Below are positions 1,498 through 43,579 of a stretch of 64,000 nt of DNA, in pieces. The stretch is taken from positions 4,865 to 68,864 of IMG/VR virus record IMGVR_UViG_3300037067_007506; one strand, written 5' to 3'. This DNA comes from a virus (Duplodnaviria; Caudoviricetes). The notes under the pieces are model-generated. The model did no database searches, was not told the DNA's origin, and saw only the letters and a list, made by a program, of their open reading frames with translations. Made by a program: the position numbers and the translations under genes. How positions within the stretch are numbered: the first letter of the stretch is position 1; every line of letters starts with the position of its first letter.

Positions 1498-2791
1498 AAT
1501 TTGTGATCGTTATTTTAATAAGGTGTTTAGTATAAAACGACATGTTTTAGGTACTCATAAAATTAAAATAAATTCTATTAATTTGAATGATTATATTATA
1601 TTTAATTCTATTTTTGAAGTAAATATTTACTTCAATAAATTAAAATCATATTTGTGTGGTTATGATAAACAATTATTAGAAATTTATTTAAATCATATTT
1701 CACAAGTTAATATGATGTTATTATATTTGAAAAATAATATTAAATATAATAACATTAATAATGAATCAATATGTAGATTACCTAATTACTTAAATTATAA
1801 ATTAAGTAACAAATATGTTACATCTAAAAAAGAAACCTATATATTTCAATATGGTGAAGATTTAGGAATCAAATTATTTTTAGAATATCAAAATTTTCAA
1901 TCTAAAGCTGGAGTATCTTTAGATTGGTTTCAAATAAAATATGGTTATGAATTAGGGACAATTAAATGGTTAAACCTTAAAAAATCCCAAAGTGAAAGAG
2001 CTAAAATAAATTCTAAAAATGATATTTGGATTTCTAAAGGTAGTAAAAGGTATTGGTTAAAAAGAGGATATGATGAAATTGAATCAACCCAATTATCTTT
2101 AAAATATAATTCTTATTCTAAACAATATTGGATTTCTAAAGGTTTAACATATGAACAAGCTCAAAATAAAGTATTAGAAAGAATTTGGACCTCTGATAAA
2201 TTTATTAATAAAAATAATATAAATTTACAAGAAACAAAAAATAAACTTGTTTTAAGTATTAAAAAATCTGATTATTATAAAATACATAAAAAATATGGAT
2301 TAAAGAAATATTGGATATTTAAATACGGTTATGATTTAGGATGTCAAAGATATGAGACTTTCTTATTTAAACGTTCATTATATCCTAAAAGAAAAGTTAA
2401 AAGGCAATCTAATATAGCTATAAAATTTTTTGATGAGTTATTAACATATATACCTGATAAAGAAAATGTATATTATTATAATCATAATGGTGAAAAGAAG
2501 ATAGGAAAATATTATGTAGATTTTTATTATAAAGGAATAGTTATAGAATTTAATGGTGATTTTTGGCACGGAAATCCTAGATTCTATAAAGAATATAATT
2601 ATAATACTGTTTTAAAAAAGTTCTATTCTGAAATTTGGGATCATGATGATATAAAGAATTCTAATATATTAAAAATAGATTATATAAAAGAATTGTTTAT
2701 AATTTGGGAAGATCGTGATAAAACTAAAGAAAGTTTAACTTCATTATGTTTAGATTTGATTAAAAATTTTAAGGAGTATAATATATGTTAA
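1487..2791 (+). mobile_element. free-standing homing endonuclease (C-terminal Vsr-like PD-(D/E)XK domain, N-terminal C2H2 finger, YGxxLG/WxxKG repeats) inserted in rnh
   Basis: YYVDFY..IVIEFNGDFWHGNP nuclease motif; KCKICD..H...H finger; overlaps both rnh fragments. Confidence 0.8.
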
Positions 2792-3180
2792 CAGAATTAG
2801 ATCAAAAGATACTGGATTTTAAAAAAAAATATCCGGAAAAATTTGAAAAAATTAAAAGTGATTATATGAAAATTAATAAAATGACTAATAAACCTTTTAG
2901 TGATAAAACTATAAAGAGTATAATTAATTTAGGTATTGTTAAATGGTTAAATGGTCAACCTAAGGAAGTTTTAGAGAATTACGAACGAAATAAAAAATTA
3001 ATTGTTTTATCAAAAGAAACAATTCCACAAGAAGTTCAAGATAATATATTAGAAGCTTATAAAAATTCTAAACCTGTGGTTGATAAAGTTTTAATTGATA
3101 ATTATTTGAAATCTAGAAACATGGCTTCAATGTATAAGAAGGTAAATGATTTTTTACCAAAAAAAGAATTATATTTCTAA
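2785..3180 (+). CDS. rnh: T4 RNase H-like exonuclease, C-terminal fragment
   Basis: NYERNKKLIVL..IPQEVQDNILEAY resembles the T4 RNase H C-terminus; own AAGGAG RBS at 2771-2776; same frame as the N-fragment. Confidence 0.8.
   Translation: MLTELDQKILDFKKKYPEKFEKIKSDYMKINKMTNKPFSDKTIKSIINLGIVKWLNGQPKEVLENYERNKKLIVLSKETIPQEVQDNILEAYKNSKPVVDKVLIDNYLKSRNMASMYKKVNDFLPKKELYF
3134..3180 (+). repeat. upstream copy of a 47-bp direct repeat flanking TnpB-1
   Basis: 3134-3158 is identical to 4457-4481; 41/47 identity over the full repeat. Confidence 0.95.
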
Positions 3181-3219
3181 AACTAACTATTCTTAATTAT
3201 ATAAAAGGAAAATAAACAG

Positions 3220-4431
3220 TTGCAACGAACAGAAAGACATATATTAACAAAATATAATGAAAATTTTAAACAAATAGATAATCTTTGTTTTTTATCAAAA
3301 AATCTATATAATTATGTTAATTATTTATTGAGACAAAATTATTTTGAAAATATGAAAAAAGATAAAAAAGAAAGAGTTTGGTTAAATGAATATGAATTAG
3401 TATCACAATTAGCAAAAGATGATCAAATAGATTATAGATCATTACCATCAAAAACTAGTCAACAGATAATTAAAGTTTTGTTTAAAAATTGGAAATCATT
3501 TTGGAAATTAATCAAAACAAAAGGTTTAAAAGGTAAACCTCAAATACCAAAATTTAAAGATAAATTAAAAGGTAGAAATATAATAATTTTCACAAATCAG
3601 GGTTGTAAAATAAAAGATGGATTTATTTATTTTAACAAAAAATGTGGAATAATTAAAGTAAAAACAAATATTAAAAATGACCAATTGAATCAAGTTCGAA
3701 TTATTCCACAATCAAATTGTTATGTGTTAGAAGTTGTTTATGTAAAAGAAAAGGAGGAAAAAGAATTAGATATCTCAAAATATTTAAGTATTGATTTAGG
3801 TATTAATAATTTAGCTGCATGTATAACTAACCAGGATTTAAATCCTTTGTTAGTAAATGGTAAAATTGTAAAAAGTATCAATCAATATTATAATAAGACA
3901 AAAGCAAAATTTATGAGTTTCATAGGTGATAAAGGTATTTCAAATAGAATTAGAAAATTAAATTTTAAAAGAAATAATAAAATAAATGATTATTTTCACA
4001 AAACAAGTAGATTTATAATTAATTATTGTTTAAAAAATAAAATACAAACAATAATAATTGGTTATAATGAAGGTTGGAAACAAAATTGTAATATTGGTAA
4101 AGTTAATAATCAAAAATTTGTTAGTATACCTTATTTAAAATTAATTAAACAAATTGAATATAAAGCTGAAGAAGTTGGAATATTTGTTTTAATTAATGAA
4201 GAACGTTTTACTTCTAAATGTGATGCTTTAGCATTAGAGGAATTGAAACATCATGATAAATATTTAGGTACTAGAGTTCATAGAGGATTATATCAAAGTT
4301 CTGTAGGAAAAATGATAAATGCTGATGTAAATGGCGCAATAAATATCATGAGAAAAGTAGTTGATAATTTGATTGTGAAATCAATAATCAATAGAGGTTG
4401 TGTGAATCAACCAATTAGAATTAATTTCTAA
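3220..4431 (+). mobile_element. tnpB: TnpB-1, IS200/IS605-family RNA-guided endonuclease (rearranged RuvC-II type), no tnpA adjacent
   Basis: SIDLGINN (RuvC-I D), IIIGYNEGWKQ with Glu relocated to EERFTSK, INADVNGAINI (RuvC-III D). Confidence 0.9.
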
Positions 4432-4456
4432 TAAACTTTCTTAAATGAAAGAATTC

Positions 4457-4503
4457 ATAAGAAGGTAAATGATTTTTTACCTAAAAAGGAAACTTATTTC
4501 TAG
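4457..4503 (+). repeat. downstream copy of the rnh 3' end, in the predicted omega-RNA guide position of TnpB-1
   Basis: Encodes KKVNDFLPKKETYF-stop versus KKVNDFLPKKELYF-stop upstream. Confidence 0.9.
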
Positions 4504-4556
4504 TTTACTATTGTAAATTTTTAAAAACCTACTATACTTATAATAAGAGGAATATT

Positions 4557-4949
4557 ATGTCAGATAAGAAATTAAAATTTTGTATACTTGAACAAGACCA
4601 TAAATCTTTCACTTACATGACTCGATTGATTACATATATAGAAGAGTTTGAAAATTTTCAATTAAGTTCTTTTGGTAATATTTTACAGTCTGAAGAAATT
4701 GAAGATCATTTAAGACGTCACGGTTTTAAATTAGAATCTCGTGAAGCTGTATTGGAATCGTTAAATTGGATTGATAAATATGGTGAAAGATTTAGAATAT
4801 ATTTAAATACTTTGATGGTAGCTTATCTATTATATATATCTCATAGAGATGAAACTAATGATGACGAGTTAACTTTTGACACATTTAGGTTGATAGCTAA
4901 AGAATTAAATGAAACAAATGCTAAAAAAATACTAAATTATATTTTTTAA
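4557..4949 (+). CDS. hypothetical protein
   Basis: 130-aa ORF with GAGG RBS, preceded by a TTGTAA...TATACT promoter-like sequence. Confidence 0.6.
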   Translation: MSDKKLKFCILEQDHKSFTYMTRLITYIEEFENFQLSSFGNILQSEEIEDHLRRHGFKLESREAVLESLNWIDKYGERFRIYLNTLMVAYLLYISHRDETNDDELTFDTFRLIAKELNETNAKKILNYIF

Positions 4950-33098: not shown

Positions 33099-34434
33099 TA
33101 ATATTGAATTTAATATAACTGAAGTAAAATTACCTATTTCAAAATTTAAAGGTAGTAAACATTGTTATTTAGGGTTTGATGTTTCTTTTTTCAAAAATAG
33201 ATATAGAGATTATGATATAAATATTCAAAATAAAAAAGATAATATAATAAAGTTTATACAAAATAATTATAAAGAAGTTATCATAGAAAATGATACTATT
33301 TATATAAAAGAAATAGATTTAACAATAGATATCAGATTAGATTATATCCACAATTTTAATGCTTATAATAAAAAAAATGTTTTTCATATTAATTGTCTAA
33401 ATGAATTAATATTAAATAACGAAATAGATATAATTAGAACTTGGTGTATAATAGATCCTGAAAGACGTAGTAATTTTATATATAAAAAATATTTAGAAGT
33501 ATTTAATTATAACGATAATAATGATTTAAAAACACAAATAAATAGGGTTTGTAATGGTATCTTTAGATGTTATAATGATGATGAATTAAAAAAAGAATTA
33601 AATCAAATTATTAAAAATCCAGGTAATTATAATTCATCTCCAAGCCATAATAAGATAGTAACCAATTTTAATAAACACATTTTTAAAAATGAAAATGAAT
33701 ATTATTTAGATTGTATAAAAAGACGTAGACATATTGAAAATTGTAGATTTTTACAATATAAAGAAGAATATGAATTAACAGATAATGATATTTTAATTAA
33801 TTTTAGATTTAATAAGTATGTTCAGTATTATAGTTATTTTTCAGTATTATGGGCTAAAGCTTTTTTAACAGAATACAAAAATGATATTAAATCAGTATTA
33901 GATATATTTGGTGGGTGGGGACATAGATATTTAGCTTTTTTAAAAACAGAGTATATTTATAATGATATTTGGAATTTAAGTTTTGATGGAGTTAAAAAAG
34001 TACATGAATTTTGTGAAAGAAATATACATAGTTTACCTAAAAAAACTTTTTTAAATGAAGATGCTAAAAATTACAATTTTAAGAATTTAAATTATGATTG
34101 TATTTTTACATGTCCTCCATATTTTAATGTTGAGGTTTATGATAACGGAGAATATAAAGATTGGAACAATTTTATGGAATTGTGGGATAAAAGCTTAGAA
34201 AATTCAATAACTGATAAGGTTAAAATATTTGCTTTTGTTATTAGAGATATATTTGCTGAAGATTTAAAAAAAAGTTTGATAAATTATAATTTTGTTTTTG
34301 AAAAAGAAATTAAATTAGGAAAAAATATAAAACATCATTATAATAGAGGTAAATCTAAAAATTCTAGTTCAGAAACATTATATATATATTTTAATAAAGA
34401 TTATAAAAAGAAAGAAGTTTTTAATTATTTTTAA
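33088..34434 (+). CDS. amino-DNA methyltransferase-like protein (N6A/N4C type)
   Basis: VLDIFGGWGHR (SAM binding) and FTCPPYFNVE.Y (catalytic PPY). Confidence 0.75.
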   Translation: MIIDNIEFNITEVKLPISKFKGSKHCYLGFDVSFFKNRYRDYDINIQNKKDNIIKFIQNNYKEVIIENDTIYIKEIDLTIDIRLDYIHNFNAYNKKNVFHINCLNELILNNEIDIIRTWCIIDPERRSNFIYKKYLEVFNYNDNNDLKTQINRVCNGIFRCYNDDELKKELNQIIKNPGNYNSSPSHNKIVTNFNKHIFKNENEYYLDCIKRRRHIENCRFLQYKEEYELTDNDILINFRFNKYVQYYSYFSVLWAKAFLTEYKNDIKSVLDIFGGWGHRYLAFLKTEYIYNDIWNLSFDGVKKVHEFCERNIHSLPKKTFLNEDAKNYNFKNLNYDCIFTCPPYFNVEVYDNGEYKDWNNFMELWDKSLENSITDKVKIFAFVIRDIFAEDLKKSLINYNFVFEKEIKLGKNIKHHYNRGKSKNSSSETLYIYFNKDYKKKEVFNYF

Positions 34435-42310: not shown

Positions 42311-43579
42311 TTGAAAACATTAAAATTTAAAATAAGGAAATTAAATAAACAAGATTTTAATAAATTAAAAGATTTTTGTCATTATTCAAATAATCTTTAC
42401 AATTATTCTTTATATATTTGTAGAAAATATTTTGAAGAAACCAATAAATATTTAGGATATGTTAATTTAGAAAAAGAAGTAAAGACTAATGAAAATTATA
42501 AATTATTACCTGTTCAAACTAGTCAACAAATTATTAGAATGATAGATAAAAATTTTAGATCATTTTTTGCATTAATAAATAAAAAGAAAAAAGGTCAACA
42601 TTCAGATAATATTCACAAACCTAATTTTAAGAAAAAAGGTGTTATGAATAATTTAATATTTACATTCCAAAATTCTTTTATAAAAGAAGGATATATTCAA
42701 TTATGTTCAAGTAAAGAATATAATAAAAAATTAAATGTTAAACAAGGTCATGGTAATATTAAATTACCTTTCACATATAAGATTGATGGTAATTTTAAAC
42801 AATTAATTATTAAACCTATAAATAATGGACAATATTTTAATTGTTATTTACAATATGAAGAAAACAAAATTATAAAGGAGGAAAAAGATCAAAATAATTA
42901 TTTATCAATTGATACTGGAATAAATAATTTATGTTCTTGCTTTAACAGTTCTACTGGTCAAGCTTTCATTATTAATGGTAAAGCTTTGAAAAGTTATAAT
43001 TCATTTTATAACAAAAAATTAAGTGAATATAAATCTATTTTAAAAAAAGTAAATAATAAAAATTGGTCAAAAAAATTAGAAAGAATAAATCAAAAAAGGT
43101 ATTGGTATATAGATAATTATTTTAACCAAGTAGTTAATTATATTATAAAATATTGTACTAAAAATAATATTAATAAAATAATAATTGGTTATAATGAGAC
43201 TTGGAAAACTAAATGTAATATCGGTAAAATAAACAATAGAAATTTTTATAATATACCTTATAGTATTTTAAAACAAAAATTAGAAAACAAGTGTAATGGT
43301 TCTAATTTTATATTTATAGTACATGAAGAAAGTTTTACTTCTAAATGTGATGCTTTAGCATTAGAAGAAATAAAGCAACATGATGAATATTTAGGTACTA
43401 GAGTTCATAGAGGATTATATCAAAGTTCCGTAGGAAAAATGATAAACGCTGACGTGAATGGTGCAATAAATATCATGAGAAAAGCAAAAGTACTTAACGA
43501 TGAGTTGATAAAACTCCAGTTAATAAAGGGTTTAATCTTTAACCCTGTTAAAATTAATTTTAACAAAACTGCAAAGTAA
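42311..43579 (+). mobile_element. tnpB: TnpB-3, rearranged RuvC-II type, no tnpA adjacent
   Basis: SIDTGINN, IIIGYNETWK, EESFTSKC, INADVNGAINI. Confidence 0.9.

Follow-up and report, generated by a model that had tools for sequence, protein, structure and literature searches.

Why should the 3' end of a phage gene lie on both sides of a tnpB gene, once directly in front of it and once at the point where the guide of the encoded RNA-guided nuclease is predicted to begin? This question is raised by tnpB-1 (3220–4431; 403 amino acids (aa), TTG start), a gene located in a stretch of 64,000 nucleotides (nt) from a virus of the class Caudoviricetes (positions 4,865 to 68,864 of the IMG/VR record IMGVR_UViG_3300037067_007506; the whole of this stretch is referred to below as the window). 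The source is a viral record of 68.9 kb that is about 30% complete; the window is AT-rich and carries nearly all of its genes on one strand, and all of the window features located below are on the + strand. TnpB is the ancestor of Cas12, and the spread of its very common copies that lack a transposase is an open question. A first-pass annotation of the window had drawn attention to the duplication around tnpB-1 and had offered several explanations for it. Our analyses, which rely in this respect on the analogy with a related locus for which an element-free counterpart has been identified, indicate that the duplication is probably a scar of the recombination by which the tnpB-1 cassette was imported, and not the footprint of a transposase.

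The Direct Repeat around tnpB-1 and Its Host Gene

The duplication consists of 25 nt that are identical at 3134–3158 and 4457–4481, within a wider direct repeat (3134–3180 and 4457–4503) in which 41 of the 47 positions agree. A repeat finder pairs 3129–3179 with 4452–4502 (51 nt, 86% identity) and, at 97% identity, 3134–3163 with 4457–4486. The 25-mer (ATAAGAAGGTAAATGATTTTTTACC) has two exact occurrences in the window, at 3134 and 4457, and no match to it was found in 100 dinucleotide shuffles, even when as many as 3 mismatches were tolerated. Local alignment of the two flanks of tnpB-1 gives a score of 33.5, the maximum for the shuffles being 13. The identity over 25 nt and the 41/47 repeat described in the first-pass annotation are thus borne out, no shuffled sequence having come near them. 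The left edge of the repeat is sharp, with no significant similarity between 4412–4456 and 3090–3133 (p = 0.40), and the part that follows the exact block (3159–3180 vs. 4482–4503) is significantly similar (p = 0.0017). A weak extension of the repeat beyond the stop codon into the ribosome-binding region is possible, the spacer between the upstream copy and tnpB-1 (3181–3219) being weakly similar to 4525–4555 (p = 0.015). A reading of 4432–4456 as a further remnant of the host gene (TFLNERIH) was rejected (p = 0.40 vs. rnh sequence).

The gene whose end is duplicated is rnh. Its C-terminal fragment, a 131-aa open reading frame (ORF) at 2785–3180 that ends in ..MYKKVNDFLPKKELYF before the stop codon, has no Pfam or NCBIfam match; it was recognized by tblastn and by comparison with the C-termini of complete phage RNase H/FEN proteins (L003–L009), and it aligns with the C-terminal third of the single-chain proteins of the T4 type (~290 aa, ending in ..NDF or ..QDF). 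The label rnh, which had been given to this gene earlier, is therefore correct. The repeat spans the last 15 codons of rnh together with its stop codon, and the exact block encodes KKVNDF, which corresponds to the conserved C-terminus of the RNase H/FEN relatives. This agreement identifies the upstream copy (3134–3180), which is in frame with rnh, as native gene sequence and not as sequence of the element. Read in the rnh frame, the upstream copy ends in ..KKVNDFLPKKELYF and the downstream copy (4457–4503) in ..KKVNDFLPKKETYF, each being followed by a stop codon. The six differences between the copies are all located 3' of the 25-nt block; two of them are synonymous, one exchanges TAA and TAG, and three fall within one codon (L to T). 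By our own count, the hypergeometric estimate for none of the six mismatches falling among positions 1–25 of the 47 is ~0.007. Their clustering could reflect the need of homing for a recipient that matches the guide, conversion associated with a break, or the conservation of the KKVNDF codons.

The rnh gene is also interrupted farther upstream. Its N-terminal fragment (841–1497; 5'-3' exonuclease/FEN N domain, Pfam PF02739, 2.2e-21) and its C-terminal fragment are separated by a 434-aa ORF (1487–2791) for which neither Pfam nor NCBIfam gave a match above cut-off. The gene thus holds two selfish insertions, viz. this ORF and tnpB-1.

Flank Duplications in Related Loci

Our set of relatives comprises 66 non-redundant loci of the TnpB clade of tnpB-1, drawn from viral and metagenome contigs, all of which are tnpB-only genes packed between phage genes of the same strand. 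Long flank duplications are found in 3 of these 66 loci, viz. the window (z = 16.7), L024 (z = 8.7) and L016 (z = 6.6), those of L024 and L016 being imperfect direct repeats of 30–46 nt. The repeated sequences differ from locus to locus, which indicates that they are host sequence. In each case the start of the downstream copy coincides with the end of the conserved RNA or is a few bases from it, and a gene boundary lies within the repeat; the L024 repeat consists of the stop/start junction TAAAATG plus codons 1–8 of the next gene, and that of L016 of the sequence that leads up to the next gene's start codon. The upstream copies of L016 and L024 have mismatches within the first dozen guide positions, and no locus besides the window among 61 non-redundant ones has an exact word of more than 10 nt in common between its upstream and downstream flanks.

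For L024 the comparison with an element-free relative is available. The contigs L250 (which corresponds to L024; 3240–4540) and L251 (3860–4060) are derived from near-identical phages, one with and the other without the tnpB cassette. To the left of the cassette they are 99–100% identical over 1.5 kb, the left copy of the repeat included; to its right, the first 100 nt are 90% and the next 400 nt 100% identical. In L250 the target is duplicated over 36 nt on the left, and divergence is confined to the right, where it covers a tract of ~100 nt; the changes in this tract are a mixture of synonymous and conservative ones within the same gene. As read from this pair of sequences, the L024 cassette came from another lineage together with ~100 nt of the right flank of the donor; its right exchange was homologous and its left junction illegitimate, the latter lying 29 nt inside the recipient gene and 3' of the point where homology to the donor flank starts. 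A junction of this geometry duplicates the interval between the two points and leaves the gene intact. Element-free relatives of L016 were searched for and were not found. The first-pass annotation had viewed the two copies in the window as two alleles, and this view is supported by the element-free relative of the sister locus, where a resident left copy and a diverged right copy from the donor can be told apart.

Other members of the clade appear to have moved differently. Terminal inverted repeats (TIRs; GGCAC...GT[GA]CC) and 8-bp target duplications (ATTAGGAT in L042; 1380–1470 / 2660–2760) delimit the gut-phage relatives, and the predicted empty site of L042 is present in 27 other viral contigs (L223–L249). 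This is a footprint of the usual transposase type and suggests that a DDE-type transposase supplied in trans mobilised these relatives; it shows that the clade uses more than one route to move in phage populations. A reading with TIRs and an 8-bp duplication, as in these gut-phage relatives, does not fit the window locus. The earlier statement that IS200/IS605 insertion makes no target duplication is right for elements with a Y1 transposase, but the clade also contains TIR-bounded elements with 8-bp duplications.

Inverted repeats have also been observed in several other relatives. In L013 a perfect inverted repeat of 27 bp (ACGGAATTATGCATTTGACAAACCAAA and its complement; 568–595 and 1830–1857) surrounds tnpB, and shorter inverted repeats of this type, of the form CGGAATTA...TAATTCCG, are present in L105 and L019. 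The cyanobacterial multi-copy relatives (L153–L175, from Crocosphaera, Okeania, and Dapis; ~44% identity) have long, conserved ends resembling inverted repeats (GGTATAATAAAAG...ATAGTC on the left and ...GACTATATTTTTATGAACTAT on the right), with no adjacent transposase and no flank duplication.

The Predicted Omega-RNA and Its Guide

TnpB systems take their guide from the flank beyond the right end of the element (PMC10055086). The 3' part of the omega-RNA scaffold of tnpB-1 is predicted at 4361–4458 from a consensus fold of 25 relatives and has a single-sequence fold z-score of −2.7; no Rfam family reaches its gathering score for this RNA. Two stems of the consensus fold (4361–4365/4387–4391 and the hairpin 4396–4412) show compensatory changes in the 25 relatives. 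The hairpin 4414–4432, which holds the stop codon of tnpB-1, covaries by eye, being ATTAGAA/TTCTAAT in the window and GTTAAAAT/ATTTTAAC, GTAAGAAT/ATTCTTAC, and ATAAGGAT/ATCCTTAT in relatives. It is followed by AAA, a small hairpin (4436–4451) and the tail AATTCAT (4452–4458). Tails of 17–55 nt after the stop-codon hairpin, with a common end (..TTCCGT / ..TTCAT), are present in L105, L013 and L019. In L105 a CTTTT/AAAAG hairpin, which differs by one compensatory pair from CTTTC/GAAAG in the window, precedes ..ACTTCCGT; in L013 an 8-bp hairpin precedes ..TAATTCCGTC, and the tail of L019 ends in ..ATAATTCCGTC. The large gut-phage group has a conserved tail of 14 nt that ends in ..CCAT, beyond which the sequence varies from site to site.

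Since there is no similarity to rnh left of 4452 and the sequence to the right is derived from rnh, the element is read as ending, and host-type DNA as starting again, at 4452–4458. The guide is accordingly predicted to start at 4459 (±2 nt, as judged from the sequence), next to the sharp edge of the duplication (4452–4457), and its first 20 nt (4459–4478) are host-derived right flank. They are identical to 3136–3155 (target sequence AAGAAGGTAAATGATTTTTT), which is their sole other match in the 68.9-kb record. The proposal that the downstream copy is the predicted guide thus holds to ~2 nt, the start being set at 4459 instead of 4457, and so does the proposed match of the guide to its own locus before tnpB, which falls in the resident rnh end, 62–84 nt 5' of the tnpB start. 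The RNA tails of tnpB-1 and of the second copy in the window, tnpB-2, are not significantly similar (p about 0.3–0.5). A 16-mer of the RNA tail that matches at 34044 was rejected as being at chance level.

Origin of the Duplication

We suggest that the cassette entered the genome from a diverged, element-bearing phage along with the right flank of this donor, viz. the 3' end of the donor rnh. This donor flank would now form the downstream copy (4457–4503), a relic rnh end whose first ~20 nt would be read by the omega-RNA as its guide. The right join would have been homologous, and on the left the 5' end of tnpB would have been attached illegitimately near a sequence resembling a ribosome-binding site, 3' of the point where homology to the right flank starts. 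The resident rnh end (3134–3180) would thereby have been retained and the end of the gene would have stayed whole, with the consequence that the predicted guide matches the resident gene end perfectly over 23–25 nt. The architecture of the window is that of L024: a resident copy that is continuous with its gene, a diverged second copy that starts from the right end of the element, differences of an allelic kind between the two, no left end, and a tnpB start right after a sequence resembling a ribosome-binding site. It is by this analogy with L024 and L251 that we infer a donor and a recipient at the window locus. The right junction of the tnpB-1 cassette is confirmed by independent contigs, viz. 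L104 and one Logan contig. The two contigs besides the window that hold the downstream 130-aa gene (4557–4949, the next phage gene, which has no relatives) either have the same right junction or break inside tnpB.

A number of observations weigh against this history. Searches for an element-free or related allele of the rnh end of this phage gave no matches to an exact 23-mer in viral contigs and none to a codon-degenerate 32-mer in metagenome contigs; blastn against phage records gave matches to tnpB only and no related rnh end, and the downstream 130-aa protein, having no relatives, led to no element-free allele. As no such allele was found, the donor/recipient history rests on analogy. The perfect 25 nt stand beside a divergence of ~27%, which is more than would be expected of simple alleles, and guide-target matching, gene conversion or selection may have contributed to it. 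If TGTAT, the five bases 5' of the upstream guide match, were a functional transposon-associated motif (TAM), the phage would cut its own DNA, which argues for some further factor. The resident copy in L024 matches the guide poorly, so that cutting by TnpB need not have driven the acquisition, and the start of the guide in the window is placed, from the sequence, only to within ~2 nt.

The tnpB-1 Protein and the Class of the Element

The tnpB-1 protein matches the Pfam families PF01385 (OrfB_IS605, 7.1e-20) and PF07282 (TNB, 1.5e-09) and the NCBIfam family NF040570 (RNA-guided endonuclease TnpB; 180.5 bits, cut-off 100), and its sequence matches in the PDB are weak and of the Cas12f type only. 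The TTG start falls where the relatives have ATG, in the conserved motif MxR(T/V)ERH. The residues D192 (SIDLG), E327/E328 (EERFTSK) and D369 (NADVNG) are invariant across a 31-sequence alignment. The canonical RuvC-II position reads IIIGYN and has no Glu, and there are no CxxC pairs, the zinc finger being absent. On these sequence features tnpB-1 is assigned to the lineage with a relocated RuvC-II glutamate, a signature that has been described for IS607-type TnpBs (e.g. ISXfa1) and Fanzor ancestors (PMC10711439); its bacterial relatives include those of cyanobacteria and Helicobacter. The remark in the first-pass annotation that the RuvC residues look intact should be qualified, in that the two Asp residues are present and the RuvC-II Glu is absent from its canonical position and relocated to EERFTSK.

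Neither a Y1 (HUH) transposase (PF01797) nor a serine recombinase (PF00239) has a match in the 68.9-kb record, which represents ~30% of the genome. The stop codon of rnh and the start of tnpB-1 are separated by 39 nt (3181–3219), which leaves no room for a left end; this spacer contains the ribosome-binding site of tnpB (AAAAGGAAAA) and no left-end hairpin. The combination that characterizes autonomous IS200/IS605 elements, viz. a Y1 TnpA and subterminal hairpins at both ends, is thus lacking at tnpB-1, and of the features of the IS607 type the alternative RuvC-II Glu signature is present and the serine recombinase is not. An Rfam scan of the whole window for a group I intron, as in an IStron, found only a tRNA. 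We conclude that tnpB-1 is a non-autonomous TnpB/omega-RNA cassette without a transposase or a recognisable left end. The tnpB-only layout is the commonest form of such elements (PMC10691335).

The closest relative of tnpB-1 (L105, 357–1578; 69% identity) has a frameshift near codon 73 and is probably decaying or mis-assembled. The second copy in the window, tnpB-2 (42311–43579), is 47% identical to tnpB-1 in protein sequence and has no flank repeat. At the DNA level the two genes are 50–67% identical, but a patch of ~120 nt (4226–4345 vs. 43366–43485) is 90–92% identical, which suggests gene conversion between the copies or strong constraint on the RNA. A Logan contig from the same phage breaks within this region.

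Predicted Activity and the Target-Adjacent Sequence

From the conserved RNA and the intact-looking nuclease, the predicted activity of tnpB-1 is RNA-guided cutting of DNA that matches the guide and is located next to a TAM. By analogy with homing systems, tnpB-1 would be an RNA-guided nuclease that homes into, or cuts in competitors, rnh ends with the same ~20 nt beside a TAM, and homing against element-free rnh alleles, which was among the options raised earlier, is plausible. The presence/absence pairs in the clade, viz. L024 vs. L251 with its co-converted flank and the gut-phage relative with its 27 empty sites, fit such homing.

The five bases 5' of the upstream match are TGTAT (3131–3135) and those 5' of the guide are TTCAT. 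ISGst2 has TTTAT as its TAM and TTCAC as the motif at the element end (PMC10055086), and the upstream copy in the window may by this analogy carry a TAM-like motif, so that TGTAT is a candidate TAM. No TAM consensus emerged from the left flanks of L013, L019 and L105, which are the closest relatives, and the cyanobacterial multi-copy relatives gave no more than a weak flank ending in T. For the carrier it is possible that the locus is immune because TGTAT is not a TAM, that the nuclease is poorly active on its own DNA, or that the locus is cut or bound by its own product. DNA modification, which the first-pass annotation had also put forward, may be another source of immunity. A scan for promoter-like sequence gave a result at chance level, and a terminator scan was uninformative.

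Alternative Explanations

The repeat might also have arisen in place and once only, an ordinary insertion having been followed by slippage, or by unequal exchange of sister genomes, and then by drift, in which case it would require no second lineage and have no present role. Phages proficient in recombination readily produce duplications of this length, long flank repeats are found in just 3 of the 66 relatives, and no relative of this phage that might display a donor allele was found. Drift of a non-coding relic should, however, neither spare exactly the first 25 nt nor favour changes of the synonymous type; sister exchange would begin with two identical copies, whereas those in the window have diverged by ~27% outside the block; and the sister locus shows a resident copy with a diverged donor tract instead of decay in situ. 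We consider this origin of the repeat unlikely. A different objection concerns the guide itself, since the scaffold might end right after the stop-codon hairpin (~4435). The guide would then be CTTTCTTAAATGAAAGAATTC, the repeat would start from guide position ~21, and there would be no self-match in the seed. Sequence conservation across clades does end shortly past the stop-codon hairpin and AAA, and in L016 the flank similarity extends back to just past this hairpin. What makes so early an end quite improbable is that 4433–4456 is not host-like (p = 0.40 vs. rnh) and hence is element sequence by the logic of the family, that the closest relatives (L105, L013, L019) carry tails with an extra hairpin and a shared end, and that the gut-phage relatives keep their 14-nt tail (..CCAT) before the variable flank.

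It may further be asked whether the self-match has a function at present, the complex binding or cutting 3136–3155 either as a control of read-through into tnpB or so that the two copies stay homogenised and recombinogenic. A perfect match of 23–25 nt extends from the predicted guide start and lies 62–84 nt 5' of the tnpB start, the mismatches cluster outside a block of guide length (~0.007 by our own count), no other exact word of more than 10 nt is seen among the 61 non-redundant relatives, and TGTAT and TTCAT differ in the manner of the TAM and the end motif of ISGst2 (TTTAT vs. TTCAC). A target in its own genome would nevertheless be costly for an active nuclease, and the catalytic Asp, the relocated Glu and the second Asp are all present, unlike in nuclease-dead TldR. 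The feature is moreover not conserved, the upstream copies of L016 and L024 being mismatched in the first dozen guide positions, and the promoter-like scan, being at chance level, gave no evidence of a promoter at the site. A present function of this kind thus appears very unlikely to us. TldR proteins are nuclease-dead TnpB-like repressors that have lost RuvC catalysis and target host promoters, and the TldR-like autoregulation that had been suggested for tnpB-1 is disfavoured by the presence of its catalytic residues and by the lack of a conserved self-match in L016 and L024. We are likewise doubtful of a wider proposal, in which cassettes move between phage lineages by homologous exchange on the side of the guide and illegitimate joining on the side of the gene start, repeatedly leaving long target duplications whose start coincides exactly with the guide, and in which the carrier here would retain a perfect, TAM-adjacent copy of its target and TnpB would also act on its own locus. 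Were this action on its own locus real, repeated cutting and gene conversion would keep the copies identical over the guide length, or binding would tune the expression of tnpB.

Significance of the Duplication

Import of the cassette with its donor flank is the explanation that we prefer. A non-autonomous TnpB/omega-RNA module, the lineage with the relocated Glu, and a location in phages are known. The literature that was searched on TnpB describes neither a TnpB guide that matches its own locus nor a duplication of the guide-bearing flank that is long and allele-like and leaves the gene end whole. The window and its sister loci provide sequence evidence that cassettes may spread in large lytic phages by recombination with co-conversion of the flank, in the manner of free-standing homing genes, and that insertions at gene ends may survive because the target is duplicated. 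A naturally occurring self-matching guide would also be a test case for how an active TnpB nuclease might evade, tolerate or exploit a target that its own genome contains.

Comparison with Known Systems

With TldR systems the window has in common a fixed guide that matches a site near a gene start in the same genome; it differs from them in that the catalytic residues of tnpB-1 are present and that what the guide matches is a duplicated gene end. Integrative elements (phages or islands) whose attP contains the 3' end of a tRNA gene likewise leave the host gene intact, with the gene end present twice as direct repeats that flank the insert. Their repeats, however, are the work of site-specific recombinases, which act at a defined core, whereas the window has no integrase and its two copies differ.

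The similarity to the OMEGA modules of non-autonomous elements of the IS200/IS605 superfamily (ISDra2, ISGst2; Meers et al., PMC10055086; Altae-Tran et al., PMC10691335) extends to a TnpB with OrfB_IS605 and TNB domains, a structured RNA over the 3' end of the gene, and a guide taken from the right flank. In contrast to these modules, tnpB-1 has no left-end structure or tnpA, and its guide-bearing flank is duplicated upstream over 47 bp or more, a duplication that peel-and-paste transposition does not leave. With the relocated-Glu TnpBs (ISXfa1, Fanzor ancestors; Yoon et al., PMC10711439) tnpB-1 shares IIIGYN, the ExxTS-type motif EERFTSK, and the RuvC-I pattern of D, a hydrophobic residue and G; unlike the IS607-type elements, it has no serine recombinase or GG crossover dinucleotides, and its gut-phage relatives are bounded by TIRs with 8-bp duplications.

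Intronless homing by the free-standing endonuclease genes SegF, SegB, and Mob has been described in T4-type phages (reviewed in PMC13565253). In these systems, as at the loci described here, a selfish gene is located between conserved phage genes, and presence/absence of the gene is accompanied by a co-converted tract, as is seen for L024 and L251; immunity of the carrier would likewise be expected to come from differences in the target sequence. The recognition of the target by tnpB-1 would differ in being RNA-guided, and the carrier in the window differs in that it retains a perfect predicted target.

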